A stretch of 52,413 nt of DNA, counting the filler, from Jimgerdemannia flammicorona (taxonomy: Eukaryota), in NCBI GenBank assembly GCA_003990765.1. It is 2 parts of 2 records of this genome, joined end to end, with 100 filler letters (N's around TTAATTAATTAA, not from the genome) between each part and the next. Parts side by side here need not be neighbours in the genome. Positions count along the whole stretch, not along the records: positions 1 to 26,158 come from RBNJ01000754.1; 1 more part is not named here. One strand, 5' to 3'. The notes beneath the pieces are model-generated. The model saw nothing but the letters and a program-made list of their open reading frames with translations, was not told the origin of the DNA and made no database searches. The position numbers and the translations under genes were made by a program. Positions 2,580-44,449 of this stretch are shown piece after piece. Position 1 is the stretch's first letter, and each line of letters opens with the position of its first letter.

Positions 2580-3686
2580 TTCAGTAGGTTGTAGACGAAA
2601 AATTTTAGACCGCAGTGAGAAACGAGGTCTATGCCAATATGCCAGTAATTATTTGACGAGGTGTCATGCAGGTGTGTTTTGTTGACCAAATTATCTAGGC
2701 GCTTGCTGAAAGGGCCAACAAACATCGGAATTTGGTGGGGACACCGACATAAAAGGCATGTTCACCCATCGGGGCGCGCAAAAAGCACGGCGGGCGGAGT
2801 TGGACCTTGTAATCCCATTGGTGGTCATCTCCAAAAGTTCTGAACCCTCGCCGACATCTCCGACATATGTACACAAGCGAAACCGACAGGGAAAGAGACC
2901 AATGTATTTAGGGAGAGTGCGAAACGTGATGAAGCTGCTAGTTGCGATGTTTGCAAACAGAGCGAAGAGAAAGGAATAGTCGATCTGACAATTTGAAAAA
3001 GAGGTTACACGGCATTTGATTTAAAACCTTTGACAACAAACCGCAGCAGGACCCATGTCAATAGGACTCCATAGAAATTGTGGCTGCAAGCAGGTTTGTG
3101 AAGTTCCAAGCTCTGGTATTCGCAAGACCTGGTTTCGAGGCTCGTGGGCTGGATGACATCGATCGTAAATGCTCTTGTTGGACTCGTTAAATAGAAGGGA
3201 AACAACACATCACCGGTGGAGATGTGATGAACACAAGACAACTGTGCGCTAAGCTAGCTTGGGAGACGTAAACAAATGTGGGAAAGATTATATTGACAAG
3301 GACCAGTGCATACAAATAACCGGCGTTCAGGTCCCTCCCGATTGGGCCCTGAGGCACCAATGTTCCTGATTACATATTTCGCCGATATGTCCTTCGTAAT
3401 GATATATTTTTTAACTTTGACTAGTAGGGATCACCATGGATGGCTTCCGGAAACCCGCACCCGGAACAGGCACATATAATTTGTCCGGAGAAATGTATCC
3501 TCAGGACATCATTCTGTTCCGCACGTCGATGGGCTCACGTACGTAGTAACTATGTTGCGCACAGCACGTCATACTATTGCTTATTTCCTTCAACATCAAA
3601 AAACACCCCCAAGTTGCGATTAAGATAGATCCATTTATCTGTTACGTGCTAAGGCCTCCGTTTGTCATAATCAATCCGACTCCGAC
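2580..3686. promoter_or_regulatory. Putative bidirectional promoter between A1 and B1
   Basis: ~1.1 kb between divergent ATGs (2579 -, 3687 +), alignable with 11079-12012. No specific sites identified. Confidence 0.55.
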
Positions 3687-6600
3687 ATGTCATTCTTTGC
3701 ATCGTCGTCTGGGGCAAATAAAATGCCGGTAAAATTCGATGATAGCCCACGCGCTATCGTCGCGATTGACTTCGGAACCTCTCATTCCGGTTATGCTATG
3801 GTGAGTTTTACTATGGTTGACTTAATCCCGAATCCTTTGTCATTCTACATTATTTGAATATTTCGTATTCTGATCCGAGAATCATCCATCATACTCGCGC
3901 TCACAAATTATTAGATGCATGTCGCAGACACCGATGTCGATGCGCGTTATGACTGGGATGATGCACCTCAGCCATACTGCAAAAATCTCACATCTATTCT
4001 TTACAAGTATGATCCAAGTACCGCAAATCCCTCCGTCGAAAATTGGGGGTACACTGGTACGAGTTGTTTCCATCCTTGATCTCCCCGAAGAAAAAAAATA
4101 AAAATAAAATTACTCACAGACTTTTTGCACATCTCTACCGTCCATGTAATGCTATGCAGCAAAAAAAATAGCAATGAGGAATATCTCCAACGCCAATCAT
4201 CAATACATCGATCGCTTCAAGCTCTATTTGGACGAGAAAGTCACAGATCTGCCAGCACTTCCCGCAGGAAGAACCGCATTGGAAGTGATTGCAGACCTTC
4301 TGCGAAACTTGTACGTCATGATTCTTTCAGACATTGAGGCCAAATGGGGTGGCACAATAGGCGCCGATAACATCATTTGGTTTTTAACCGTACCCGCGAT
4401 GTGGACGGAGAAAGCGAAGCAAGGCATGAGGGAGGCCGCAGCCATGGCGGGGCTGGTAAGCTATTTTATTGCGCGTGACATGGTCTTGAAGGTTTATCAA
4501 GCAGATTCTATATTTAATAATGTATATACATAATACACTCTCATGACCTTCAATGCATTAAGGTTCCGAAACCCTACGAAAACAGCCTCAAGCGACTGAA
4601 AATCGTATTGGAGCCGGAGGCCGCAGCAATGGCATGTTGTCAACAATCGGAACAGTTTTCACTTGTACCTGGAGAAACATTCATGATTGTTGATGCTGGT
4701 GGGGGAACAGTTGATTTGGTGAGAATGGTTTACTATGTTTCTTTAGAATCATGAGTCGAACGAGCCTCTCCTTATTACCAGTTATCCCTCTTCTCTATCA
4801 AAGACTGTCCACGAAATTCTTCACGATCCGAATACCAACATTGAGTCGCTACGGGAGATTTCTCGTGGGCACGGCAAATCGTGTGGATCTACATTTGTTG
4901 ATGAAGAATTTCTCAAATTTTTCAAAGGAAAACTTGGGGCAGATAATGTTGAAAATTTTCGTGCGTCGAACATATCAGCTTGGTTTAAAATAATGAAAGA
5001 GTGGGAAGGTCTCAAGGTATGGGAGCACTTCAAAGTATTTTATTTATATACGCTCGTAGTAAAGGTATAGGGCGATTGGTTGTTTAATTTCAATTTCACT
5101 TATACCGTTTCCCCTCTAACCTCAAACAGTGTAGTTTTAAAGGGAGTGAAGACCAAGAGGAGTATACTATTGAACTTCCATCCATGTTGCGTAAAATCCT
5201 ACCCAGAAAAAAAAAAGATGTCGTCAGCTACGAATCCGGGAATGAAGATGACGAAGATGGCGAAGACGACGACAAAATCACTATAACCGCAGCAGATTTT
5301 CGTAGAATGTTTGATCCAGTTATCAATGACGTGCTAACACTTGTGGAAAGCCAGCTACAAGATGCTTGCCATGCGCTCGATATAGAGCGACAGGAAATTC
5401 TGCCAAGACCAACATCATATCCGTCGGTGCGAGTGTGATTGATAAGATGTTCTTTGTTGGCGGATTCTCGAACAGCCCATACTTGTGGAAAAAAGCCAAA
5501 GAGAAATTCGGTTCCCGTGTAAAACTGTTCCGGCCCAGTGACCCTGGCAGTGCTGTTGTTAAAGGAGCTGCGTGGTGCGGCAGATTTCCACGGTATGTTA
5601 TTGAGTTGCTCATAATTAGCATAAGCTAACATTGAACATTGATTGGCAATCTCATCAGCTGCTAACCCCAAACGTGACATTATTTAAAAAAATAGATTTA
5701 TCAGTAGTCGCCGTAGCCGACTCACTTATGGTATCAAAACCTCCGGGCCTTGGACTCCCGATAACCCAGCTGGGGAATCGGCAAAAATATGGAACGAGGT
5801 TCGTAATTTCTAGGTTCCATATACTTTGGAACTTATATGGCTTATATCATTATGGAAACTTGATATCAGCGCATAAAACGTCAGAGAACTCAAAATAAAC
5901 ATGTATAGCTAATATGATTTAACTTATGATGTGGTATTCCAGGATGAACAGATGGACTATGCAGATAATTTATTCCATGTCATAGTAAACATAAATCAAG
6001 AGGTGGGAATCAAGGAGGTTATTTCAACTCCGTAAGTATATATATACCCTATATAATTTCTGAACTTTGTTTGCTGTGACCCTTCTGATGGCCAGATTTC
6101 TACTCATTTGTGCCGAAACAGGTTTATTCCGGTCAATTCGGATCAAGATTTCGCTGAATTGGAACTATACACAACTGATTTACCGAACGAAACGTACATG
6201 ATCCCTTCCATGAAACTTGGGCCAACGTTAAAGGTGCCACTTACCACAACCGCCATTGAAAATTCGCTCCCTTTGAGAATCCAATTTGTTCAAGATGTGA
6301 GTGGCAGTATGGATGGTGAAAAGCTTCTTGCATGCAAGGACGGGCTTAAAGTAATTAGCCGAAAATTTGCAAACGAAGTCGATGAAGTTGGTCTGATCAA
6401 ATTTGGACCCGCTGTTGAGATCGTCAGGTATTTGCAATATACCGAATGGTTCATGTCATTTGAATTCAATTTTACCAATCTTAATAATGCTCGGCTCTTA
6501 CGTATTTCGATACATTATCAACTAGCGCGATTCAACCGCATTCAACTAACATTGAAAACGAGATCGATAGTCTTTGCGTCGGTGGTATGACCGCTTTGTA

Positions 6601-7078
6601 CGACGGCATCGTTAAAGGAGTCCAAATTCTCAAGGAACGTGAAGAAATCTCCGGGCAGTCAGAAACAAAGAACATCCTTCTGGTCTGCACGGATGGAGCA
6701 GAGAACTACTCCAAAACCAAATTTTCTGAGATCGAAGCTCTGCTCAAAGACCCAGGTATCTCCAACTTCAAAACGATACTTGCCATTGCTGGGGACGTGA
6801 ACACAAACGCTGCGCTCCATCAGCTATGCACTTCGGACGAGTGCAAAGCATATTGCGAAGTCATTCATGTCCGCGATTCCGGAGATGGTATCAAGGAGGC
6901 ATTCAGGGCGATGGATAAAAAAGTGCAGCTGCTCAAATCCCGTCATTTGCTCGAAGGCAAAGCCATCAGGTTAGATATGGAATTTGGGGGAACACATATT
7001 GAGGCAGAGGCCTTCGTTAAGGCATCTGGGGCGAGGAAAACCATTACGATGGATTTTTATGCAAAGAGATCCGAGTAA
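3687..7078 (+). pseudogene. HSPA12-like Hsp70 with inserted VWA domain, copy B1, 1-nt frameshift in exon 6 (pseudogene or sequence error); exons 3687-3800, 3915-4056, 4160-4455, 4563-4718, 4804-5016, 5130-5592, 5696-5798, 5943-6031, 6122-6427, 6526-7078
   Basis: Hsp70 motifs [64 protein letters not shown] motifs DVSGSM, GGMTALYDG, VCTDGAEN; all introns GT-AG. Spliced length 2435 nt is not divisible by 3: CAG-GAAAT-TCT (5391-5401) versus CAG-GGACAA-TCT in B2 leads to TGA at 5436-5438. Confidence 0.85.
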
Positions 7079-9010
7079 TTTGCTTTCGACCTACTGCTCA
7101 TTTCGTTTTGCGCTCGACGGTATTCTGATTCGCATGGTTTTGATACCATTTTTTTTTATTTTGCGGGATAACATAACTCAGGAATTCATTGACATATTAT
7201 TGCTTTGGCCGAAATTAAATAACCACTCAATATTGGTCCTTTGGCAATAAATGTTGAAAGATGTTTGACGGAAATAAATATGGTCATTGTGTTATTGTCG
7301 AAAATTGGCGTCGTTATGACGAACTGATATTATGTTTAAACACATCGAGTGCCTAAATATAATTATTAACGTAGTTCAAATTTCGGCAAGGCCAAGTCAA
7401 TTCAGTTTAGTTTCAATCGCTTCAAGTCAATCTCCTAGCACATAACCTCTTATTTCGTAGCGATTAGTCGTTAGCAATTTCGTATCTACAAGCGGTTTTA
7501 CGCATCCCTCCCGCCCATCCCTCTTGGTCTCGAGGTGTAAAAAAACGACACCTTCGCATATGAACGCGAATGGGGGGCCTTGGTTCCATATAGCCAAACC
7601 CATCGGGTGACATTTGCGACTCGAACTTTACGCGAAGGGGCGTTTTCGCGCGACATTTATTTCTACATTCTATACAACTCAAACTTTTATGCGAAAGGAC
7701 ACTTTGTTGCTAATAAATTTTTTATCCTCGACTTTCTCCAGTATTTTGACAACACCTCAGAGACATAGTATACAGGACACTTTAGTTATGGATGTAGCGT
7801 AGTTTGGGAGCAGATGGGCCTTTGATTATGTTTGGATTAAAATCTGCGAAGATATATTATATACAATGATAACGAATTTGACTATTTTCGGGACGAAAAC
7901 TACACGTTTCGAACCATTAGCACAGTTCGTTCAACCAGATACAAATCAAATCCTGGTATGTTGTCATTAACACAAATATATACTGCATCTCTGTGGCAAT
8001 ATTTGGACATACAGCCTGAGCGTTTTCTCCGAGAATCGCAAGTGCAATTCCGTCAGTTGCGATTAATATTGTGCCACTCGCGAAAGCATTAAATGGGCCC
8101 AAACCATTCCAAACCATCCCTCGACCGCCGTACCCTGTTACTGTTAGTTTCAGATCCAGCTGACGGTCTAACTATCGTCAGTATGTTGTCTCAATTAGAT
8201 ATCAATATATATAATACTCCAGCGCTGTGGTCTGGCTCTTTCTGGGGAAGTATATACGACTACAAGTTCGTTCTCCGGAAATTGGACAGTGCTTGGCTGA
8301 CATCTGATCGGCGAGCATTATAACTAGCTATTCATACTAGCCACTATTTCGTTGGCGATATTCTGTTCGCTTTGGCAAAATCCCTATTTGCTCTACTCTT
8401 TTTTTTTTTTTTTTTTCCAGCACTTATGCCCATGCCTGTGTGGAAGTAACAATGGTTTTTGCATCGCACTTCAACTAAGACGCCACAGCAGTATCAGGAA
8501 ATCAGGGCTTGATAATAATAAAGTTAATTGATGAAATCTGGGTCGTAAAATAAATTTATAAGGTTGCTGATATAATGCTTTCAGAAAGTTGCTTCGCAAT
8601 TATATCTTATTCTTACGGTTTGCGCCGTGTAACTCGACTAATTTGTAAATGAACTCTACTCCTATAGAATTTATGCTCGTATCGAGTTGCTTTCATAATA
8701 ATATTGTGCAAGCACATGGCAGGAAGGGTCCATAGATGTAAGATCTCCGAGATTCGTGGGCGACTTGCATGTGCCTGCTGCGGCGTCATCACTGCTATAA
8801 TTGGCTTGGGAGGTAAAGCTCACACGAGCACGCGGAATAAACATTAGGCAGAACATATTCGCCAAAACCATGTATATACGGAAAGCACCACCTGAGCATC
8901 CAAAACCGATACTCTATATCTTCCACGGGGTCGCTGCCTGCGCCTAACTATTACGTCAAGGACCTGCCAAATTCTAGGTTTGAGGAAATTTTATGACCGT
9001 TCGGTATTCC

Positions 9011-9150
9011 ATGCTAGATAGGAACGAATAGTGGAGGATATCTCTTATACTAGATAGGAACAAATGGTGGAGGATACTCTTATGCTAGATAGGAACGAAC
9101 GGTGGAGGATACTCTCTTATACTGGATAGGAACGAATGGTGGAGGATACC
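9011..9150. repeat. Minisatellite, 4 copies of a ~35-nt unit (consensus ~TGCTAGATAGGAACGAATGGTGGAGGATACTCTCTTA)
   Basis: Four adjacent imperfect copies with no spacers; unit 1 has only one shortened copy at ~743-770. Confidence 0.9.
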
Positions 9151-9564
9151 CTTTGCTACTGTACATACGTCACTTTTTTCGAGCGCTTCATTCATCCCCG
9201 TTGCTTCTGGTTCCCCCATAGACCGAGGAACACCAAAGGGCCGGTACTCTCCTCCCAACCAGGAATACATATTGGAAAAACATGTTCGATTGCGTAAAAT
9301 CCCAGTCCCAGTTTTGAATTTATATATATATATATGCGAAATTACGTTAACGGGGCTTTTTTTTCTTGACAAATCGACTTTCGAAGTTCTTGAGAATGAT
9401 GGGAACTGAGCACGGCAGAGCCCATTCAAAAATTGTCGTCTATATATAAAATAAAATTAGATGAATAAAAACCCAAAAGTAGTGCACATGAAGAGCGATA
9501 ACTCTAGCAATAATAAACGACTACGAAAAAGGGGAACGAATGAAAAAAATACCATGTATATATT

Positions 9565-11078
9565 TTAGAAGCACAACACATCGCATTTGTTCTCAATCTG
9601 ATCACCAATTGTGACCCTATCACCTTCCCATTTGATGTTCGCGACGCCCGGTGAGATGGTCATACAAACTGTCAGATCTTCTTCCGCCGAGGATAGCGAA
9701 TCAACTATGTTGTATAGATCGTTCCGAAATCTAATGGCATCAAGCTCTTTAACTCCTTCGGTTCGTTCGACGTTCCGGATACTTTGATCGCTTGCGGTAC
9801 CCGCAAAGAACACCACCATCTCGCCATTTCCCATCACCTCCATTTGCAGCCGAGCATGGATGCAGAGATACACCAGGAATCGTACGCTCGACCGAGATTG
9901 CCGTACGCTTTCCTCGTTGCCAAATATAGCAAGGGTCTCGGTTACTGAATCGGTCTTAGCATCCAAGAACGAGAGCAGATCCTTCCGGATGTTAAACGTT
10001 TTGTATGACAGATCGGAAAACGGATCGTATTTGACGGCTGCATGGAATTTATTTTCGACGTTCATTGGCTCGGGGATTTTCTTCAGTAGAAGGCTTGCAA
10101 ATTCGGATCCCACACGCGCCACCAGCATAGCAATCTTCGATGACTTGCTCGGCTTTAAGTCCAACGCTTGAATCTCATCAAAGATTGTATCGTGTGTGAC
10201 GAAGACTTTGTCGGCTGGTCGTAGAGTGATTGGGTCGTTAAGAAGAACGGTATTCCAGATGGTAGCCAACTGACTGCTGATTCCATGCTGAACAACGCGT
10301 TTCAGGACGGATTTTTTAAGTCGTGTGTTCTCAGAGTTGGAAAAGCTGTTCACTCGCTCGTTATACCATTTGTTGATATTTTCGTAACGTAGTCCCTTCT
10401 GTTCACTCATGCCCTCGATAATTTTCACCCTTATCAGAGATATCTTCTTCCAAGTCTTTGCGAACCTCTCAGGGTTAGCACCATCCATTACGAACAGCCC
10501 GCTCTTTTGTTCGCTGACGTATCCATCTTGAGTTGGTGGGCAAAGGCTCCTTTCGAGTTGAATTTTCTTCTCCAAGTCTCCCATCCTCCCCGCCATCGCC
10601 GTTTTTTCTTTAGTATACTTGTCCTTCTGACGCTGAAGTTCGTTCGTGAGGTCCGCGACTTTCCGTTCCCATGCTTTAACCGTGTCTTTTAGCTGTTCAT
10701 GAAACTTCTCCTGGTGTTCGAGTTCATCCTTGTGTTTGATATTGGTTTGTTCTAACTCTTCGCGTAGTGTCTCAAGTTCCGAATTCAACTTTTCCACGGT
10801 AGTCTTGAGATCGTCGGACCGTGTGTTGTTTTCCCAGTGATGTAGAACTTCCAGCTCGGTGCCCACAGTTGCACTATTAGTTTGGTGCCCATTATCACTA
10901 GTTGGCACCGCGGTGTAACGATTGTCTTGTCGTGGTACGGATTTCTTAAGTACCCGCAGAATCTGCGGTGAAGAGTGGTCATCATAAGCGTTAATACGGT
11001 TCAGAGGGTGAACGAAGGCCTATTGATCTTGGCGGTTGGACTTACGTTTTGACATAATTGGGATGTGGAAGGTGGCAT
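9565..11078 (-). CDS. Coiled-coil protein with putative GrpE/Mieap-like C-terminal domain, copy A2 (~476 aa; exons 11078-11046, 10962-9565)
   Basis: The 447-aa ORF frame is open upstream to 11019. Exon 1 MPPSTSQLCQN joins through an 83-nt GTAAG...CCGCAG phase-0 intron. Long N-terminal heptad region; clear paralogue of A1. Confidence 0.85.
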
Positions 11079-12012
11079 TTCAGTAGGCTGTAGACGTTAT
11101 TCCTCCGAAATTTTTTAGATCGCAGTGAGAAACGGCGTTTTGTTGTCAATTTAAGACCAAAGTATCTGGGTGCTTGCTGAAAAGGTCAACAAACATCGGG
11201 ACACCGACATAAAAGGCATGGTTACTCATCGGGGCACGCAAAGAGCACGGCGGGCAGAGTCGGACCACAACCCTCGTGATCACCGATCCCGATTCATCCA
11301 AAAGCGGTTTCCTCATGCATCAAATCTCTGAACCCTCGCTGATATCTCCAACATATTTACACGTTTGATAGTGGTTTATTGGGATATCGCAGCAAGCGAA
11401 CCCGACAGGGAAAGTGACCGATGTATATATATAGGGAGAAAGAGGTTACACAGGATTTGATCTAACTTAAAACATTTGACAACAGGCCGCAGCACCCCAA
11501 GTTTCGGGGGAGAACTCATGTCAATAGACTCCATGGAAATTGTGGTTTTGCGAAGCTCTAGGCTCTAGTATTCACAAGGCCTGGTTTCGAGGCTCGTGAG
11601 CTGAGTGACATCGATCGTAAATGCTGGACTCACTGAAATGAAGGGAAAAAACACATTGCCGGTGAAGATGTGAACACAAAGCAACTGTGCGCTAAGCTAG
11701 CTTGGGAAACGTAAATAAATGTGGGAAAGATTAAGTAAACGGCGTTCAGGTCCCTCCCGATTGAGCCAGCGTTCCTGATTACATATTTCGCTGATATGTC
11801 CGTCGTAATGATAGGGATCGCCACGGATGGCCCGCATGCACATATAATTTGTCCGGAGAAATTTATCATCGACTTGAGGTCTCTGTTCCGCACGTCGACG
11901 AACTCACGTACGTAGTACCTATGTTGCGCACAGCACTTATTTCCTTCAAGATAAATCCATCAATCTGTTAAGTGCAAAAGCCTCCGTTTTTCAGAATCAA
12001 TCCGACTCCAAC
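11079..12012. promoter_or_regulatory. Putative bidirectional promoter between A2 and B2
   Basis: ~0.93 kb between divergent ATGs; homologous to 2580-3686. Confidence 0.55.
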
Positions 12013-15000
12013 ATGTCGCCCTTTGCATCGTCATCTGGAGCAAATGAAATGCTGTCAGAATTCGATGATAACACACGTGTTATCGTTGCTATTGACTTCG
12101 GAACCTCCCATTCCGGTTATGCTATGGTGAGTATTACTATGGGTGACTTAATACCGAATCCTTTGTCGTTCTACATTATTTGAATATTTCGTCTTCTGAT
12201 CCGAGAACCATCCATCATACTCGCGCCCACAAATTATTAGATGCATGTCGACGACACTTCGGCCGCTGTCGAAGCGCAATATCGGTGGAAGAATCAACCT
12301 CAACCATACTGCAAAAATCTCACATCCATCCTCTACAAGTATGATTCAAGTACAGCGAATCCCTCCGTCGAAAATTGGGGATACACTGGTACGAGTTGGT
12401 TCCATCCTTGCCCTCCTCCCCAAAAGAAAATGACTCATAAACGTTTGCACATGTCTACCGTTCATGTAATGCTATACAGCACGGAATTTGGCGATCGGAA
12501 AAAAATTAAAAGAACGACAATATATCGATCGCTTCAAACTCTATTTGGATGAGGATATCGCAAACCTACCGGCACTTCCCACAGGAAGAACCGCATTGGA
12601 AGTGATTGCAGATCTTCTACGAAACTTACATGTTATGATTCTCTCAGAAATCGAGGGCAAATGGGGTGGCATGGTGGGGGCCGATAACATCGTTTGGTTT
12701 TTAACCGTACCCGCGATGTGGACGGAGAAAGCGAAGCAAAGCATGAGGGAGGCCGCAATCATGGCGGGGCTGGTAAGTTATTTATTGCGCCTGTGTAGCG
12801 TAACCATGGTTTTGAATATGTAACTGGCATGTTATATAATTACATAATGTACATAATACACTCCATGTCCTTCAATGCATCAAGGTTCCGGAAAATGAAA
12901 ACAACCTTAGGCGACTGAAAATTGTTTTAGAACCGGAGGCCGCAGCAATGACATGTTGTCAACAATCGCAACAGTTTTCGCTTGTACCTGGAGAAACATT
13001 CATGGTTGTTGATGCTGGTGGCGGAACAATTGATTTGGTGAGAATAATTTATTATGTTTCCTTAGAATTATGAGTCGAACGAGCCTCTCCTTATTATCGG
13101 TTATCCTTTTTCACTATAAAGACTGTTCACGAAATTCTTCACGATCCGAACACCAACACTGAGTCGCTACGGGAGATTTCTTGTGGGCACGGAAAATCGT
13201 GTGGATCTACATTTGTCGATGAAGAATTTCTCAAATTTTTCAAAGAAAAGCTTGGGGGAGATATTATTGACAGTTTTCGCGCATCACACGGGGCACCTTG
13301 GTTAGAAATAATGAACGCGTGGGAAGTTCTCAAGGTATGAGAGGACATTCAAAGGCCTTTATTTACGCTCGTGATAAAGGTATCGGGTGATTGATCATTT
13401 AACTTTGCACCGTTTTTCTCTAACATCAAACAGTGTGGTTTTGACGGAAATGAAAATGCAAAAGAGTATATTCAACTTCCATATAAGTTGCGCCAAATCC
13501 TAGTCAGAAACAACACAGATGTCTTCAACAACTACGATTCCGATAGTGATGAAGAGGAATTCGACAAAGTTACTATAACAGCATCAGATTTTTGTAGAAT
13601 CTTCGATCCAGTCATCAATAACGTGATAACACTAGTTGAAAAACAGCTACAAAGAGGTTGTCATACGCTTGATATAGAGCGACAGGGACAATCTGCCAAG
13701 ACCAACATATCCGTCGGCGCATGTGTGATTGATAAGATGTTTTTTGTTGGTGGATTCTCGAACAGCCCATATTTGTGGAAAAAAGCCAAAGAGAAATTCG
13801 AGTCCCGTGTAAAAATGTTCCGGCCCAGTGACCCTGGCAGTGCTATTGTTAAAGGAGCCGTGTTGTGTGGCAGATTTCCACGGTATGTGATTGAGTTACT
13901 CATAATTTAGTTAACATCGATTATTAATCTCGTCATCTCCTAACCCAAAACACGACATTAATTAAACAAATAGTTTCATCAGTAGTCGCCGTAGCCGACT
14001 CACTTATGGTGTCAAAACCTCCGGGCCTTGGACTCCTGATAATCCGGCTGGGGAATCTGTAAAAGTATGGAACGAGGTTCGTAATTTCTAGGTTCCATAT
14101 ACTTTGGAACTTACAGGGCATATACATAACATATCTTTATGGCAACTTGATGTCAGTGCATAAAAATCCAGAGAGCTCAAAATGAACATGCATAGCTAAT
14201 ATGATTTAACTTATGTCGCGGTATTCCAGGATGAGCAGATGGACTACGCAGATAATTTATTTCATATCATAGTAAATGTAAATCAAGAGGTGGGAATCAG
14301 GGATGTTATTTCAACCCCGTAAGTATTTATATTATTCTTGAACTTTGTTTGCTGTGACTCTTCTGATGGTCGGATTTCTACTCATTTGTGTTGAAACAGG
14401 TTTATTCCGGTCAGTTCGGATCAAGATTTTGCTGAATTGGAACTATACACAACTGATTTATCGAACCAAAAGTACGTGATCCCTTCCATGAAACTCGGGG
14501 CAACGTTAAAGGTGCCACTTACCACAACCGCCATTGAAAATTCGCTCCCTTTGAGAATACAATTTGTTCAAGATGTGAGTGGCAGTATGGATGGTGAAAA
14601 GCTTCTTGCATGCAAGGATGGACTTAAAGCAATCTGCCGCAAATTGGCAAACGAAGCCGATGAAGTTGGTTTGATCAAATTTGGGTCCGCTGTTGAGATC
14701 GTCAGGTATTTGCAATATTCCGAATGGTTCATGCCATTTCAATTACAATTTTACCAATCTTAATAATGCTCGGCTCTTACGTATTTCGATACATTATCAA
14801 CTAGCGCTATTCAACCGCTTTCAACTAACATTGAAAACGAGATCGATAGTCTTCGTGTCGGTGGTATGACCTCTTTGCACGACGGCATCGTTAAAGGACT
14901 CCAAATGCTCAAGAAACGTGAAGAAATCTCCGGGCAGTCAGAAACAAAGAGCATCCTTTTCGTTTGCACGGATGGAGAAGAGAACAGCTCCAAAACCAAA

Positions 15001-15357
15001 TTTTCTGAGATCGAAGCTCTGCTCAAAGACTCAAGTATCTCCAACTTCAAAATGATGTTTGCCTTTGCTGGGAACACGAACACAAACGCTGCACTATATC
15101 AGCTATGCACTTCGGACGAGTGCAAAGCTTATTGCGAAGTTGTTCGTGTCCACGATTCCGGAGATGGTATCAAGGAAGCATACAAGGCGATGGACAAAAA
15201 AGTGCAGCTGCTCAAATCCGGCCATTCGCTCGAAGACAAAGCCATTAGGTTGGATATGAAATTTGGGGGAACGCATATTACAGCCGAGGCTTTCGTTGAG
15301 GCATCTGGGGCGAGGGAAACGGTTACGGTGGATTTTTATTCGAAGACATACACATGA
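12013..15357 (+). CDS. HSPA12-like atypical Hsp70 with inserted VWA domain, copy B2, intact (~806 aa); exons 12013-12126, 12241-12388, 12480-12772, 12885-13037, 13122-13334, 13434-13882, 13974-14076, 14230-14318, 14400-14705, 14805-15357
   Basis: Nine GT-AG introns give a 2421-nt open frame. Actin-fold ATPase motifs [46 protein letters not shown] / GGMT / CTDG; HSPA12-type tail [32 protein letters not shown]. Confidence 0.92.
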
Positions 15358-18300
15358 TCTGCATGTAAAATATTTTTCGATCTACTGTTCCATGTTTTTG
15401 AAACCATTTTCTATTTTGCGGATGACGTGACTGTCTATATTGCTTCAACCGAAATTAAATAACCGCTCATAACTTATTCAGTATTGGTCCTTGACATTAA
15501 GTGTTGAAAGATGGTTGACGGAAATAAATATGATCATTCGAAAATTGGATTGTCATGACGAACTGATATTATGTTTAAATACATCGAGTGCCTGACTACC
15601 AATAAAAATTTTATCCTCGACTTTCTCACAACACGTCAGAGACATAATATACAGAACACTTCAGTTATGGATGTAACGTAGTTTGAGATAGTGACTATAT
15701 TTGAATTAAAGTCTTCGAAGATATATTATATACAGTTTGACTATTATCGGGATGTGTTGTACGAAAACGGCACGTTTTGAACCATTAGTACAGTTCGTTC
15801 AATCCGACACAAATCAAATCCTGGTATGCTGTTATTAACGTGGCAATATTTGGGCATACAGCCTGAGCATGACCTGCGAGCATCAATGTCAAGGGTAACT
15901 CTGTCAGTTGCGACTAATATTGTATCAACTCACGAAACGCATTAAATGGGTGCCATAGACCTTCGGCCGTGAACTACCCTTTCCAACCTCGACGTTCTGC
16001 ACGTGACTCGCTATCACCCATGAAATATTGTCTTGAGCAAATTTTCTGTATGAAACCGGACGGAAATTACAAGGGAACGCTGCTGCGCGTGATAATTAAA
16101 GATCCCTCCGACGTTCAAAATGGCGGAAACGCGCCTTCGAAACGTTCCAAATCAAAGTGGCTTATATTCCCGCTTTTCGGAAATTTCCTGAGGTTTCCTT
16201 TGTGGGTGTTTGCCTTTGACGATTCCATTTTTGGCATTCTACGCTACGCTTTTGCAGAAATTATTGACAAGAGTTCTAGCTGCGAGATGTGCGGCCAAAG
16301 CCCATTTACGATAACAACGACGGCGAAGAATGATTTTGCTGCACTCCCTTCCGGCAGTGTGAACTTTAAATTCGGGATTTCTAGTTGGGTAAACCTAACC
16401 CATTGGTCCATCTCCCTGCGGCCAAGCGGTCGATCCTCCTGAGAACAATATTACCCCCCTTCCCATGCTTAAACAAGTTTCGAGTCATGCAAATCAAATC
16501 GGGCGCGAGATCCACAATCGCCGCTATCACAAGCGTCGCATGCTACCCCTTCGCGAACTCGGAACGTGAGCGAATCATCGCCGGCTTGTTTCGTATTTCA
16601 GACAATAAGTCAAGGAGTTGGTGCATTGGCGGCTCCCCAAATTGTTGGCGTCATTATGCATTGTCGCCACGCGCGTCCATTGGCTTCGAGTTTCATTTGT
16701 GGGTCTCACATCATAGTTTTTTGAATAGGCATCATGGGGCCTCGATCTGGCGTCTTTCCCAATCGTTCTTTCCCTTTTCCGTCTCGCTAAACATTTCCAC
16801 TGGAAAAGGGCAGGTCCCCCCTTTTTTTTTTCTTTTTTTTCTTTTTTTTTTTTTTCGGGGTGCGTGAATAGATTTGGGATTGGGGGATTGGGCAGAGATG
16901 AAAGCAAGGGGCAGCATAGGCCCTCTTTGGGCATTAGCCATTCCCTCACTAGACATCTTGCCTCCTCGAGGAAGACCGCCGTGGGTCCCGAGGCGATTTG
17001 GCAACGAAGCCCATTGCGCAATTTAATTGCGCTGCAAAGATCCCCAATTGCCGAATTTCCCACCAGAGACGGTTTTCATGTGCTTGCTGCGGCCTTATCG
17101 TCATCGGCGGAGTGCCTGGGTTGAAAAGTGCGTTTCATATATGTCAAGCTTTTTTTTTTTCCTTTCTACCTCGCTAAATACATGTTCTCCGATGCCTTGT
17201 GGCCAGTTCGACGAGGCTCAGACCCGTGCTCCGGAAGCGGCTCTCCGCTCGGAATACAGTCACAAAATGGGCAGCTGACCCGGAAATTGCCCGCCCATTC
17301 CGAGCTGGTCCGATTGGCCGATGGGCGTCCATCACGTCTCGGGATACCGGATTGGGTGTGGCACGAGATTAAGACCGGGGCTGGAACGGTTGGTTTGAGG
17401 AAGGCGCTATTATGTCTTGAGCTTAAGGCAAGGCGACGCCAAGGAGTTGACTCACCGGCGGGAAGACTGTCCGGAGGAGTTCTCGCACGTGTGCGGGAGG
17501 CGTTTTTTTTTTTTTCTTCTTCTTAGCGCTGAAGTCTTGGCGCAAGGAAAAAACAAATCACGTCTACAGGCCATGGTAGAGGGCTGAAAGGCGTTCTGTA
17601 CACAATACAAGTCACGGTCTAACTGTCACGCCTGTGTGGGCGCCCTTACGCTCATTGTGTGTGTCTCCTCTGACACCCACTAACAGTTCCAGGCCGTCTC
17701 ACACGACCCAACATGACATGACATGTTTTTTCCTGGACTTCATTCCCATTATAGCCAGTCAATATTTGTCCACGTACACAAAACACAAATGTAGCGCCTC
17801 TTATCAAAGTCACAGAAAAGAATAAACTATAAAAAGGAAAAGACCAGAAAACATCTGACCCCGCTATTTCGTTAACCCCAAACCCAAAACGTAACATAAA
17901 CTATAGGCTTCCCGACCCCAGTCCCGCGGAGATTGCCTCGATTGATAGTTGTCGTAGATCGTACCCATTGGGCTGATCGCCAGGGGGTAAGGGGGTAGAG
18001 TTCATCCGATTTCGGTCACGGAGAAATGAAACCTACCAGGTTTAGGAGGGTTCAGATCGTTCCCAAAATCGGTCCTAATCCGCGAAGCAGCCCGATAGCT
18101 CTTTGACGGAGCCGTCCGAAATGGACAAAGCGGCAAATACGCCGTGGAAGCTTCCCATCTGCTTTCCCAATTCGTTCCCTAAGACCACGATTGCGAGGAG
18201 CTTAGCAACTTCGTGAATGAAACCCAGCCTTGATTTGTCGCCTTGCAGATCTGCTCGATCGATGGTCCGTGCGCAGTGCTCCCGCCAGGAAGTGTCGCCT

Positions 18301-22068: not shown

Positions 22069-24292
22069 ATGTCCTTCCGCCATCCCGAAAACGCCCACAC
22101 CGACCGCCTTAACATCGCCCACAAACGTATCGGCTCCGTCGACCTGCCTCACCGTCTCTTTAGCCAACAGAAACGACGCAAATTTGCCGACACGCCGCAA
22201 AGTAACGGCAGAGTGTGGCACGAAGAAGGAGACTATCACCACACCAACGCGCCCGCTTTTCTACCCTCTCCTGCTGATGTGATAAAGGAGAATGATAGGT
22301 TGGAGTCTGAGCTGAGAGAGTTCATAAGTGCCGGAAACAACTTCTACCACAACGCCACGCCAAGCGACCCACCTTTCCCCTCCTCCTCCATTGGCACCGG
22401 TATCCATCTGCCATCGGCCACTGGAATGCAGAGGATGGGCGGAATGGGGTCTGAATCGAAAGAAATTACGCGAACCGGATCCAATTTGCACCATGACGAT
22501 AGACGTATCCACCCGCCCTCACCGTTCCCGGCTTTGCCTTGCAGCGACTCACCTTCGCCGCAAGCACATGACACAATATGGCCCGAACTTAGAGAACCCA
22601 CAAAAGCCAGTCACGGCTACTGGCGTAAAACCCTTCCTTCGCTCTCCTCACGCTCGCCGTCTCCGGTGTCGAAGTATCGTGATGAGGCCCGCGAGTCTTA
22701 CCATGGCGACATGTTCACCCGCTTGCCGTCACTTACTCGCTCAATTTCCCCCCGCTCCGCATCCTTGACGCCGCCTCTGCATTACAGTAGTGAAACCGCG
22801 CATGTCCCCCACGGCAACACGCATTTAAACTACCCCTACGGAGGCGTGCTCACACACCGGCCCTTGCTCCCAATCGCTAACTTCTCACACACCGCGCCGG
22901 ACTTGCACAGTGGCGGCGTGCAATCGGCCTCTGGCCCAACCTCCACATCGTTTCAATCAGCATCTGACTTGTACAACGACGACAGGCTCACCGAACTTCC
23001 TTTGCTGGCCCCGCCAAACGTTACCCGCGCCGCGCCCGACTGCTACCCTAGTGACATGCACACGGGTGACCTACCTCCTTCCTTCCTACATCCGACATTT
23101 TTAAAAGTGACATGCTTACCTTGTCTCTCTCAAACTTCTTCCTCATTCAGATATCTCCCATGGTGAAAGGCCTTCCCTAGCCGTCTTCAACCCTTCACAC
23201 ATGGCACCGGACTTCAATCGTGGACACACGTACCCGACGTTCGACTCACCCTCTCCCCACGTCGCAGCCGATTTCTACAAAACAGATATGCGCCCGGTCT
23301 TCACTCTCACGCCTCCCCACGTCGCATCCGGCTTCAAAAAATTAGACATGCTCACTCTCTATCCCTCGCTCCCACCCTCGGACTTTACCTACACTGTACC
23401 CGATTTATATAAGAGCACTGCACAATCGCTTCCACCACACACCTTCTCTAACCCCGCACCGAACATTCACCAACGCGACACGACCGACCTCTCCTCCTCC
23501 GCTTCATCCGGGTCCTACCAAAGCGACACGCTCACCCACCAACCGCCTACTAATCACTCCCACACATCATCGAGCTTCCAGCCCGTCAACACCGAACTAC
23601 TACCTCACCACGGCCTCATCTGGCTCCCTCCAAACGCCTACCTCCGCGGCCCGCAACCCCAGCCCCCCACCTCCCGACCAACACCAAAGATTCTCTGCAT
23701 TGATCTGACGTCCTCCCCTTCGCTCTCCCCCAGAGCGTCGGTTGACATGGATGAAGTTGTTCAGGATCCGGTAACATTTGACGCAAGTTCGAGGCCGACA
23801 TACGGAATCTCATCCTCCAGAGCTTTGTCTTTCGAACCTCCATTGCACGTATCTCCTTCTCCCGCCATCACCCTCGGCCGCCCCACCGGCCACGCTCGCG
23901 GCTCGCGCAACCTCCCCAGGCACGCGACGAACACACTGAAGGATTGGCTTGTTATCCACAAGCATCACCCATACCCGATGGATTGGGAGAAGGAAGGGTT
24001 GGCGCGCTCGACAGGGCTCTCCGTGAACCAGGTCGATCAGTGGTTCATCAATGCTAGGAGAAGGTATCTAGAGGTTGAGAAAGGAGAGGGAATGGGCAGC
24101 GAGGAAGTGGAGGTGGATGAGTTGGGGAGTGAGTGTGAGAGTGAGAGTGGAGGTAGAGAGGTAGATAGTGCGATAGAAGAGAAGGAGAAGGAAGAGAAGG
24201 GAAAAGAGAAGGAGAAAGCAGAGAAGGAAAAAGTGGAGGAGAAGGGGAAAGAGGAGAAGGAGATAGAGGAAAAAGACGATAAGGAAGAGTAA
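22069..24292 (+). CDS. TALE-class (KN/TGIF/Cup9-like) homeodomain transcription factor, with a frame break at ~23050-23200 (intron or frameshifts)
   Basis: Homeodomain RNLPRHATNTLKDWLVIHKHHPYPMDWEKEGLARSTGLSVNQVDQWFINARRRYL (~23906-24070) with the PYP loop and WFINARRR. Two consecutive Pro/Ser-rich ORFs (22069-23166, 23201-24292) in different frames share an internal repeat; Glu/Lys-rich tail. Confidence 0.8.
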
Positions 24293-26362: not shown

Positions 26363-26404
<42 letters not shown>

Positions 26405-42265: not shown

Positions 42266-43619
42266 CTGGATGGGCTTTGGTCAGGGGTTTGGCCTTGAGA
42301 TGTAGCAGGGCATACTGGGCAATATCCTTACTGAGTTTGGGCTGTCCTAGGGCTGAAGCTCTACTAGCAGAGAGCCTCCAGGCTCTGAGGTTGAGGTGTG
42401 ACCATCTGGTTCCAGTAGAGGGGTCTCAGAAATAGTTGATTCCTCTTCTTCCTATTGGGTCTAGGGCTTCCATGAAGTTGGTGGCATCTTCTACCCATCC
42501 TTAATGGGTTGCATGTCTAATGAGAGCTAGGATGTCTTCTTCCAAATTGTAGATCTTGAGAGTTCTTCTTTCTGACTTCCTGGTTTGGCCTTTTTGGATC
42601 TGGCTTCAGTTATCTCCTCTCTTCAATGTGTGGATTGCAACATCATGACTGAGATAGATCTTCTGATGCCTGTAGTCTCAGAAATCTGGGTGTCTTCCAT
42701 AGTTGCAATATCCCATTGCTTGGAAATTATGTTCTCAGTTGTTGATCTCTTGTTGTCTTGGGAATTGGTACCCATCTTGGTTATAAGTTGGTGGAAGAGT
42801 AGACAAGAAGAATACTTCTGTCTGGGTGAAGAGGCCTTGTCCTCTGAATTGGCTTTGCAACTTGGTGGTAACTTCCTGGAAGATAGTTGACTGTGCAACT
42901 GTGTTTGGGGGTTCTGGTCTCTGGGGTCTCTGTCTCTCCTATTGGTCTAGTAGATAGCACTGATAGCAGTAGTCTTGGGGAGAGTGGAAGACCATTTGGT
43001 GTGGACATCTTCCTAGCTGAAAAGCCTTTTCTTGGTGAGTTTCTTTCTTGGGAATAATGGTGATTATACTGGGTCCTTCTTCTATGTTCCAAGGGTCATT
43101 ATCTTCAGATGGTGTCCAGCAAGAGTTATCCCAGGGAATGAGTTCAGGGACTTCTTCCTCTTCAGGTACTTCTTGTTCAGGAGCTTCTTGGTCAGGAACT
43201 TCTTCTCTCTCAGATATTTCTTGTTCCCAAATTTCTTGCACTTCTGCAGCTTTGGCTGCAGATATTTCTGGAGCATGTCTGCATTTCTTCTTCTTCTTTC
43301 TGCACTCAGAGCAGGCTGTACCAGGCGAATTCCTTTTCCCAATGATCTTGGAGGAATGCTCAGAACACTTGTGTCTCTTGAGGCAGGTGAGAAATCCTTT
43401 GATTTCTCCTGCAATGGCTCCAATAGTAATGGGGATAGTGATCTTGGCCCACACATTGTCTTCTGGTCTATCATCTACCAGGTTAATTCAGAGATTAAGT
43501 CTGGGGTCATTTCCATCTTCAGATTCCTCCTCCTCCTCTGTGGTAGACACTTCACTGCTGGTATATTCTTCCTGAATGGTGCCCTTCTTCTTCTTCTTTG
43601 ATTGCTCATAGCTAGTCAT

Positions 43620-43990
43620 CTTAACTCTGTACTTCTTGCCTTGGTAGTCAAACTTGAGTACTTGTTGTCCAATATCAACAACTGCATTCATTTCCTTCAT
43701 CCAGTTGGTGCCAAGGATCATGTCATAGGTGACAGCTTCAGTGACAACAGCTTTGGGGATAGAGAACTGAATGTGTCCAAGAGAAATAGTGATGTTTTGT
43801 ACTTCTCCAAGAGGTTGAGTTTGGGCTCCATCTGTTACTATGATGCTGAGGTTGGACAGTCTATCAATGGGCCATTGGAGGGTGTCCAGGAACCATTTGG
43901 CAATGACACAGACAGCTGCTCTTGTGTCTATGAGGATTTTCGCCTTTTGTCCTCCAATATTTCTATATAGGTAGGTGCTGACATATCTTT
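43620..43990 (-). pseudogene. Aspartic protease of element A
   Basis: ILIDTRAAVCVI (DTG decayed to DTR by G>A) and DMILGTNWMKEMNAVVD. Confidence 0.85.
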
Positions 43991-44449
43991 CAGCTGCTTG
44001 GACAGAGATGGGGGCTGGTTCTTGCTGTGGGATTGGAGCTCAGCCAGTGTTAGACCTGGTGGTTCTCAGTAATTTATTTCAAACTCCAGCTAGTGTCAGT
44101 TGCAGGAACTGCAGGAGAGGGACTTCCATCTTGGCTTCTTGAATCTTCTGCCAGGCTTCATTGTAGATATCTCTAGACATAGTCTTCAGGGTGTACTTCT
44201 TCTTGGGGTTTGAAGCAGCAGGTTCCTGTTGTTCTTGTTCCATTTCTTCATCCTCTGGTGGTAGCTCATTTGTCTTGGGAACAAAAGGTAGAGGAGGCTG
44301 GAGAGGTATTTCTACTTATTCCTCTTTATGTTCTTCATCTTCCTCTCAGATGATTCTTCTGCTGATATTCCTGGATGGTCTTCCTATAGGTCTCTTCCTT
44401 TTCTCTGCTGGATAGACTTTTTTCTGAGCAGTAATCTTGGTAGGGTACA

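Follow-up and report, generated by a model that had tools for sequence, protein, structure and literature searches.

We analysed a 52,413-nucleotide (nt) stretch of DNA from Jimgerdemannia flammicorona (NCBI GenBank assembly GCA_003990765.1; positions 1 to 26,158 come from RBNJ01000754.1), hereafter called the window. It contains two copies of a tandem unit of about 8.3 kb, each carrying a gene for an apparent relative of the chaperone Hsp70: copy A at 3687-7078 and copy B at 12013-15357, both on the plus strand. Three exon patches in the region encoding the nucleotide-binding domain (NBD) are strongly diverged between the copies. On balance, we lean towards reading these patches as near-neutral, indel-prone loops in paralogues that have been partly homogenised by gene conversion. 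That conversion caused the mosaic of silent divergence, and that relaxed constraint rather than weak positive selection shaped the patches, is what we infer from the comparisons described here.

The proteins encoded by A and B are identical at 640 of 804 positions (79.6%), and their differences are clustered, with an index of dispersion of 2.12 in 15-residue bins that none of 2000 permutations reached. Patch 1 (P1; plus strand, B 12247-12300, A 3921-3968, VADTD--VDARYDWDDAP) is the loop of the hairpin that follows phosphate-1 and has an indel of 6 nt. It differs at 17 of 48 nt, with a proportion of synonymous differences (pS) of 0.32 and of nonsynonymous differences (pN) of 0.363, compared with 7 of 114 nt in intron 1 (Fisher p=7e-6), and nucleotide homology between the copies persists (z=5.5 against shuffled sequences). 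Patch 2 (P2; plus strand, B 12482-12520, A 4162-4203, KKIAMRNISNANHQ) is an A-rich, low-complexity loop of lobe IB. There, 24 of 39 nt differ (pS 0.75, which is saturated; pN 0.58), against 16 of 91 in intron 2 (Fisher p=2e-6). Nucleotide similarity in P2 is no better than between shuffled sequences (z=0.64) and both flanks are conserved; P2 is thus the complete replacement of a stretch of 13-14 codons, not a run of substitutions. Patch 3 (P3; plus strand, B 13257-13568, A 4939-5276) comprises the end of exon 5, intron 5 (13335-13433) and the start of exon 6 through an acidic run. It belongs to lobe IIB and has in-frame indels of 3 and 9 nt; indels that keep the frame occur in all three patches. 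As first delimited, P3 differs at 30 of 114 nt, and in its extended form at 63 of 213 (pS 0.349, pN 0.284). These two forms are more diverged than intron 4 (10/84; p=0.013 and p=0.0015, respectively) but not than intron 5 (24/99; p=0.75 and p=0.35), which lies within the patch and has the highest divergence of all nine (p=0.0026 compared with the rest).

The initial annotation had claimed that patches of exon are more diverged than the adjacent introns. Its count for intron 1 and its three pairs of divergent peptides read exactly as given there, and the catalytic motifs are near-identical as it said, the ATPase motifs being the same in both copies or one residue apart ([V/I]). The contrast itself holds for P1 and P2 but not for P3, whose inner intron is equally diverged. 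Taken across the entire gene, divergence is equal in exons (311/2414, 0.129) and in introns (122/904, 0.135, with a further 73 gap columns). The contrast also arises in part because intron 1 (plus strand, B 12127-12240, A 3801-3914) is itself unusually conserved: it is 114 nt long in both copies, has no indel, and is less diverged than the other introns (p=0.012) and, in a post hoc comparison, than the four-fold sites of exons 1 and 2 (13/33; Fisher p=1.1e-5). A search of the whole window against Rfam gave no match, and thus no known RNA that would explain the conservation of intron 1. Over the nine introns, the correlation between divergence of an intron and of its flanking exons was positive yet non-significant (rho 0.44, p=0.23).

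The patches had also been assigned to Hsp70 lobes IB and IIB. In DnaK, subdomain IA covers residues 1-37, IB residues 38-111 and IIB residues 228-310. Alignment with DnaK places P2 at about residues 55-88 (IB) and P3 at about 246-295 (IIB), in agreement with that assignment, but P1 falls at about 21-31, with a 7-residue insertion found in the family, and would lie in IA or at the IA/IB border, not in IB proper. Differences between A and B follow variability in the family, being commoner at positions that are poorly conserved in 62 other homologues (Spearman rho -0.33 with conservation, p=2.6e-13), and all three patches vary family-wide in sequence and length, with indels in the alignment.

The selection and conversion tests rest on two sequences, A and B. 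For the whole gene, the Nei-Gojobori method gave a synonymous divergence (dS) of 0.273 and a nonsynonymous divergence (dN) of 0.115, and hence a ratio (omega) of 0.42. In the three patches together pS was 0.398 and pN 0.335, against 0.245 and 0.072 in the rest of the NBD; dS is raised in the patches too (Fisher p=0.021), although less than dN. A rise of dS as large as that of dN had been named in advance as a result that would speak against diversifying selection, and this was largely what we found (a pS ratio of 1.62), the rise in dS being the smaller. We also fitted codon models by maximum likelihood (ML) with our own pairwise likelihood of the Goldman-Yang type (F3x4, kappa estimated), not with PAML. 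When the patches were given their own synonymous rate, omega was 1.17 in the patches (likelihood ratio test (LRT) against 1, p=0.66) and 0.32 in the rest of the NBD; with such a local rate it ranged from 1.17 to 1.32 and was never significant (p=0.24-0.73). Synonymous change in the patches ran at 1.89 times the rate elsewhere in the NBD (p=0.066).

Since the patches had been picked for being diverged, two controls were used. In one, the partition was taken from homologues alone, as the 20, 25 or 33% of NBD columns with the lowest conservation, and omega was 0.84-1.14 (p=0.45-0.95 against 1). In the other, we ran 2000 simulations in which the family-variable third of the domain was neutral and the most diverged windows were chosen greedily. 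The observed ratio of pN to pS within patches (0.84) did not stand out from the simulated mean of 0.77 (P=0.30), whereas the ratio of pS in patches to pS in the rest did (1.62, null mean 1.04, P=0.0115, 23/2000). Sliding-window dN/dS (Nei-Gojobori, 30 codons) never exceeded 1 inside the patches. The diversifying selection proposed in the initial annotation is not demonstrated by these tests, with omega not significantly above 1 either under a local synonymous rate or in the homologue-only partition. A uniform synonymous rate is rejected only when P2 is included, and without the premise of a uniform neutral rate omega does not rise above 1. Overall, the patches behave as neutral sequence with a divergence roughly 1.5-fold deeper than that of the rest of the domain.

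Silent divergence is uneven along the gene. Four-fold sites differ at 60 of 288 positions (0.208) and aligned intron sites at 122 of 904 (0.135). A two-level segmentation gave a silent divergence of 0.202 in 12249-13953 and 0.105 elsewhere, a contrast reached by 7 of 300 permutations, and across 32 windows of the gene pS is correlated with pN (rho 0.53, p=0.002). The sole significant low tract in the scan lies at B 14691-15090 (A 6413-6811, plus strand), covering the end of exon 9, intron 9 and the first 95 codons of exon 10. Only 5 of its 135 silent sites differ (3 of 98 in the intron, 2 of 37 four-fold sites; permutation p=0.002), and we infer that it is best explained as a gene conversion tract. 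Patchy gene conversion, which had been offered as the alternative to selection, is thus partially supported, by one significant tract of low silent divergence. The surroundings of intron 1 may be either a conversion tract of about 160 bp (12091-12250, 8 differences) or a sign of constraint on the intron; both are possible. Other baselines are the intergenic spacer (137/695, 0.197, plus 236 gap columns) and the 3' flank (79/272, 0.29). The first 95 codons of exon 10 (14805-15090), which encode the core and the loops of the metal ion-dependent adhesion site (MIDAS) of a von Willebrand factor A (vWA) domain, have 21 nonsynonymous and 4 synonymous differences. The ML omega here is 2.1 at a very low dS, is non-significant (p=0.15), and lies within the tract of low silent divergence.

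We propose the following course of events. The patches would be NBD loops and helices (the phosphate-1 hairpin, IB and IIB) in which constraint has nearly gone, so that substitutions accrue at close to the neutral rate (omega about 1). Their low-complexity A-rich and acidic runs may tolerate in-frame indels of the slippage type, and in P2 one whole stretch has been exchanged. Purifying selection would hold the ATPase core that separates the patches (omega about 0.3). Stretches of the gene would intermittently be homogenised by conversion; 14691-15090 is the clearest candidate, and the 160 bp or so around intron 1 may be another. Since conversion needs similarity, diverged patches would be spared, and would have kept, or gained, a deeper divergence. 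With some stretches converted and the patches more deeply diverged, a patch can exceed the intron that adjoins it.

Transcription was examined with contigs of two public runs, X1 and X2, placed on 3600-15400; the runs are presumed to be RNA, and the contigs skip introns. One X2 contig of 2593 nt spans copy A from 3654 to 7184 and skips all nine predicted introns at the predicted borders, and X1 and X2 contigs skip introns 2, 7 and 8 of copy B exactly (3/9 confirmed). Both Hsp70-like copies are thus transcribed. In the window, the coding sequence of copy A has a length of 2435 (remainder 2) and runs into a stop after a frame break at an A-run (AAA) in exon 6 (5395-5397, plus strand), where the window is one base short. 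The X2 contig has an extra A behind 5394 at a depth of 63.4, and the frame is open on either side of the break. Copy A is transcribed, spliced and intact in run X2, and the frameshift in the window reflects either variation between strains or a mistake in the assembly. Apart from this base and one T-run in the 3' untranslated region (UTR), the contig differs from copy A of the window at six bases, three synonymous and three not, and every one of them outside the patches. Three of the six are B-like in the X2 transcript. We considered ongoing conversion for these and rejected it, as new mutation in copy A of the window strain gives the same pattern. The patch sequences of A (exons 2, 3, 5 and 6) recur in the X2 contig with 0-1 differences per piece, and P2 of B recurs in an X1 contig.

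Some further features of the contigs were noted. At the A7 run 12499-12505 (B exon 3, inside P2), a low-depth X1 contig has one A more, which breaks the frame, and the X2 contig does not; the extra base is an error or else a polymorphism caused by slippage. At 5438-5591 and 14005-14057, short segments that are the most conserved coding parts, X1 and X2 contigs match at least at 90% before passing into sequence that differs from the window, and a depth of 170 is reached over 5176-5569, where neighbouring stretches have about 40-60. These contigs come from further family members that share near-identical segments.

The spliced A and B proteins were represented by single exons and by homologues, so that the assignments of family, fold and subdomain are based on homologues and on how A and B align with them. 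With exon 6 as query, an exhaustive search by HMMER gave 201 proteins at E<=0.001, and the nearest named homologues are from Endogonales (Jimgerdemannia flammicorona and Endogone sp.), among them P0151, a full-length 'VWFA domain-containing protein' of 797 aa. Pfam HSP70 was listed in 15 of 20 homologues scanned and reached the gathering score in 13 of the 20; the scores, at 18-57 bits, are weak. A profile of 64 homologues aligned with Escherichia coli DnaK (2kho) at E=2.4e-28 over DnaK 4-513, that is, the NBD, linker and beta-sandwich, and A and B align with the homologues along their whole length. The phosphate-1 (DxGT[TS]), phosphate-2 (DxGGGT), EP.AAA connect and adenosine (VGG...P) motifs are present in both copies, and the NBD motif columns are nearly invariant across the 64-sequence alignment. 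With single exons of the window, Pfam gave HSP70 in none of 10, the sole match being vWA in exon 9, the PDB search gave chance-level matches only, and word-index homologue searches with exons 6 and 10 found none. In the AlphaFold (AF2) model of the stand-in P0151, 10-residue block means of the predicted local distance difference test (pLDDT) exceed 85 over residues 21-550, with two dips to 73 and 76. A Foldseek search with this model gave top matches that were all DnaK, BiP or Hsc70 (E down to 3e-23), with template modelling (TM) scores of 0.56-0.64 by target for ATP-state DnaK and BiP at about 15-16% identity to DnaK. The stand-in model thus supports an Hsp70 fold with a two-lobed NBD and a beta-sandwich substrate-binding domain (SBD).

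The C-terminal part departs from this fold. Neither a helical lid (SBD-alpha) nor an EEVD tail is found: the strands of the beta-sandwich are followed by vWA, and the proteins end in ...DFYSKTYT and ...DFYAKRSE. Exon 9 matches VWA_2 (E=7.3e-6), its 27.0 bits just equalling the cut-off of 27. Both copies have the same DVSGS, and GGMT[S/A] and CTDG follow in exon 10; the T and D of the MIDAS were assigned by inspection, and the vWA part of the P0151 model is poor (pLDDT <50). These motifs point to a vWA domain with a MIDAS. Within 14400-15357 (A 6122-7078) it is inserted into the Hsp70 beta-sandwich, between its last strands; in relatives that are free of vWA, the strand '..V.F' leads straight into 'FG.TEI.V.A'. 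The protein is thus an atypical Hsp70 with a vWA/MIDAS domain and no lid. The gene is nuclear and intron-bearing, the lidless protein is probably cytosolic, and its N-terminus is acidic by inspection. The motif pattern TVPA.W, EPEAA and VGGF..SPYL may resemble that of HSPA12. Another member of the same family, P0058 (919 aa), has an N-terminal caspase domain (Peptidase_C14, E=7.6e-26) instead of vWA; the end domains to which the Hsp70-like ATPase is joined differ between lineages.

Each Hsp70-like copy has a neighbour gene that was duplicated with it and is transcribed divergently from it, on the minus strand. The neighbour of B (9136-11266; long exon open reading frame (ORF) 9565-11019) encodes an N-terminal coiled coil and an unassigned C-terminal domain, and its paralogue beside A lies at 750-2806 (long exon ORF 1135-2517). 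The two proteins are identical at 329 of 494 positions (67%), and the genes are 75.7% identical over 2237 nucleotide columns. With pS 0.153 and pN 0.131, the neighbour gene evolves almost neutrally. The neighbour of B is spliced in X1 and X2 (minus-strand CT..AC joints at 9439-9553 and 10962-11046), and its product is 99% identical to P0153, a hypothetical protein of J. flammicorona. Its best PDB sequence match was mitochondrial GrpE, at a non-significant E=0.27 and over one helix of the coiled coil. The ESM Atlas gave a GrpE cluster at a TM score of 0.38 over 110 residues, below threshold, and a MIEAP hint from ESM Atlas/PDB was also sub-threshold. GrpE was not among the best 25 of 36 and of 51 Pfam rows, which held generic coiled-coil families only. 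Both GrpE hints are leads, not evidence. A predicted complex of the NBD of P0151 with P0153 scored 0.00 (mark 0.34); it involves a stand-in rather than the cognate pair and is no evidence either way.

Two side observations concern this neighbour. At 9821-10189 there are two X2 contigs, one identical to the window and the other, of higher depth, with 35 differences in 369 nt (90.5%), which points to a third, closer copy or an allele of the neighbour gene. At its 3' end (9011-9158) there is a tandem repeat of 35-37 nt with about 4 copies and 84-91% matches.

Several of our results weigh against the explanation by near-neutral loops and partial conversion. If patches and the rest of the NBD share one synonymous rate, omega is 2.06 for the three patches (LRT p=4e-4), 1.84 without P2 (p=0.004), 3.7 for P1 alone (p=0.003) and 1.74 for the extended P3 (p=0.015), and P1 has repeated charge changes with few synonymous ones. 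In the neutral simulations with greedy choice, the ratio of pN in patches to pS in the rest (observed 1.36, null mean 0.77) was reached once in 2000 (P=0.0005), and without P2 (1.21) in 0/2000. Without P2, moreover, the patches no longer have a significantly raised dS (ratio 1.40, P=0.094; LRT p=0.61), so a uniform rate, and hence omega above 1, is not rejected for P1 and P3. Alignment errors next to indels could raise pS and pN alike and draw omega towards 1. As for conversion, only one tract supports it at the level of the scan, the segment of intron 1 failing there (permutation p=0.32). The four-fold divergence of the neighbour gene (17/144, 0.118) is below that of the Hsp70-like gene, which makes the neutral baseline uncertain, and two sequences cannot separate lineages or date tracts. 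The shared-rate values and the simulated ratio favour diversifying selection on three surface patches of the NBD, conferring partner or client specificity on each paralogue, with introns as the neutral and the core as the constrained background. So do the exchange of acidic for basic or neutral residues in P1 beside identical conserved codons, the transcription of both copies, the use of IIB as a surface by all Hsp70 exchange factors according to the available part of PMC4753570, and a Ka/Ks above 1 in 14 of 30 tandem HSPA12-type pairs of the oyster (PMC11268181, likewise as far as available). We regard such selection as unlikely here, if an appreciable possibility. Omega with a local rate is never significantly above 1, the homologue-only partition and the 30-codon windows agree with this, and dS is raised as well; P2 is a replacement, intron 5 is as diverged as P3, and throughout the family the patch regions vary and carry indels in the manner of unconstrained loops. 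Furthermore, the six differences between transcript and window in A are all outside the patches.

The patches, P2 above all, could instead have a different history rather than a different rate, having been imported from other family members by ectopic micro-conversion or made by local indel turnover. The loss of detectable nucleotide homology in P2 between conserved flanks, its pS of 0.75, the in-frame indels of all three patches, the further family members indicated by X1/X2 contigs and by the depth of 170, and other paralogues in databases (P0151, P0003) are consistent with this origin. It seems improbable, as a search of the 52-kb window for donors of P1, P2 and the acidic run found none and P1 is still clearly homologous between the copies. 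Contact with GrpE, which the initial annotation had linked to IB and IIB, is not supported: the protein is an atypical, lidless Hsp70 with an N-terminus that is acidic by inspection, and no GrpE gene was found beside it. According to the available part of PMC4753570, GrpE serves bacterial and organellar Hsp70s, all types of nucleotide exchange factor target lobe IIB, and some Hsp70s (HscA, HscC) need no GrpE. A GrpE-dependent setting of the DnaK type, bacterial or organellar with a GrpE partner, does not appear to apply to this gene. That the patches nevertheless contact a GrpE-like exchange factor, possibly the coiled-coil neighbour, each copy having co-evolved with its own partner, would fit a co-duplicated, divergently transcribed and fast-evolving neighbour, its GrpE matches in the PDB and the ESM Atlas, and the position of P2 and P3. 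We consider it very improbable, given that both matches are non-significant and concern a single long helix, that the Pfam rows inspected hold no GrpE, that P1 lies outside IB and that the patches behave like neutral loops. The frame break in exon 6 might suggest that copy A is a decaying pseudogene or that the patches are artefacts of assembly. This reading is hardly credible and is largely refuted by the spliced X2 contig, which covers all of A with six substitutions, supplies the missing A and leaves the frame open, by the recurrence of patches of both copies in X1 and X2 contigs, and by the clustering of the differences, which are not spread along the gene. Near-neutral loops in partly homogenised paralogues are thus the explanation we retain.

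The tandem structure was found by a blastn search of 11901-15500 against the window, which located the second copy at 3622-7070; the alignment has 3481 columns and an identity of 84.9%. Each unit consists of the coiled-coil gene on the minus strand and the atypical Hsp70 gene on the plus strand, in divergent orientation. The gene of copy B has 10 coding exons (12013-12126, 12241-12388, 12480-12772, 12885-13037, 13122-13334, 13434-13882, 13974-14076, 14230-14318, 14400-14705 and 14805-15357) and an intact ORF of 806 aa for an Hsp70-like NBD, an SBD-beta-like domain and vWA; its nine introns are all GT..AG and 81-153 nt long, and the reading frame is open. Copy A has the same structure, with exons at 3687-3800, 3915-4056, 4160-4455, 4563-4718, 4804-5016, 5130-5592, 5696-5798, 5943-6031, 6122-6427 and 6526-7078. 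It also has an intron in the 5'UTR (3539-3653, plus strand, GT..AG, 115 nt): the 17-nt loose end of the contig before 3654 matches 3522-3538, which is followed by GTACGT, and AG is at 3652-3653. Upstream of both copies (3460-3540 and 11840-11910) there are conserved promoter/5'UTR blocks with a TATA-like CATATAATTTGTCCGGAGAAAT, then TCTGTTCCGCACGTCGA...CTCACGTACGTAG, the 5'UTR intron coming next.

Elsewhere in the window, an ORF at 23111-24292 (plus strand) has a Homeobox_KN (TALE) domain (E=4.6e-16), and a probable remnant of a retrotransposon lies at 43488-44039 (minus strand), an ORF for an aspartyl protease of the retroelement type (gag-asp_proteas, RVP_2). GC content is 0.198 at 20-22 kb and 0.56 at 22-24 kb, where GC skew is -0.34; at 28-34 kb and 48-52 kb the skew is positive, from +0.34 to +0.51. 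Of the letters between 26159 and 26258, 88 are N, and 26364-26403 is an A40 run.

The locus is a trap example: an exon patch that is more diverged than the adjoining intron is not by itself evidence of adaptive change, and it is not such evidence here because dS rises with dN, P2 has been replaced, and the intron used for comparison is an outlier. The gene is of interest as an expressed, tandemly duplicated fungal relative of Hsp70 that carries vWA within its substrate-binding domain and is paired with a fast-evolving coiled-coil gene. If the patches were selected specificity surfaces, they would form a small, testable system for how Hsp70-type ATPases gain new partners. More broadly, the coiled-coil and Hsp70-like-vWA genes might be a fast-diversifying two-gene module that is amplified in tandem in Endogonales, with the NBD lobe surfaces and the MIDAS face of vWA as specificity surfaces under diversifying selection and partner co-evolution. 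We give this little credence; if it were true, the module would be a eukaryotic, single-polypeptide analogue of the systems of multicellular prokaryotes that combine a chaperone ATPase with recognition by vWA.

Like canonical Hsp70/DnaK (PF00012), the A and B proteins have an actin-fold NBD with phosphate-1, phosphate-2 and adenosine motifs, a linker and a beta-sandwich. They differ from it in having no helical lid or EEVD, in the vWA inserted before the last strands, and in long family-specific loops in the phosphate-1 hairpin, IB and IIB. To our knowledge, no J-domain or exchange-factor partner is known for an Hsp70 of the A/B type. In the literature searched, with subscription journals outside the coverage, we found no paper on a fungal fusion of Hsp70 and vWA. 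Fast divergence of tandem atypical Hsp70 genes is already known from the oyster, in which 89 of 113 HSP70 genes are HSPA12 according to the available part of PMC11268181. The animal HSPA12-type genes, tandemly expanded in bivalves, resemble A and B as divergent Hsp70-like ATPases with tandem duplication and high Ka/Ks between neighbours, as far as that source goes; unlike them, A and B are fungal, have their nearest named relatives in Endogonales and carry vWA.

The silent sites of A and B recall the conversion mosaics of tandem paralogues in their heterogeneous divergence, one significant low tract, and diverged islands beside near-identical stretches. They differ from such mosaics in that two sequences are compared here and the tracts are neither polarised nor dated, and in that intron 1 could equally reflect constraint. 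Prokaryotic NTP-dependent conflict systems (MoxR-vWA ternary systems and GTPase-Hsp70 systems) are described, in the available part of PMC7159879, as combining a chaperone-type ATPase with a peptide-binding vWA in fast-diversifying, multi-copy genes. The combination of an NTP-driven, chaperone-type ATPase with vWA is shared with the genes studied here. As that text presents them, the conflict systems are prokaryotic, consist of several genes and use MoxR AAA+ or GTPase proteins, whereas in J. flammicorona both parts lie in one eukaryotic polypeptide.

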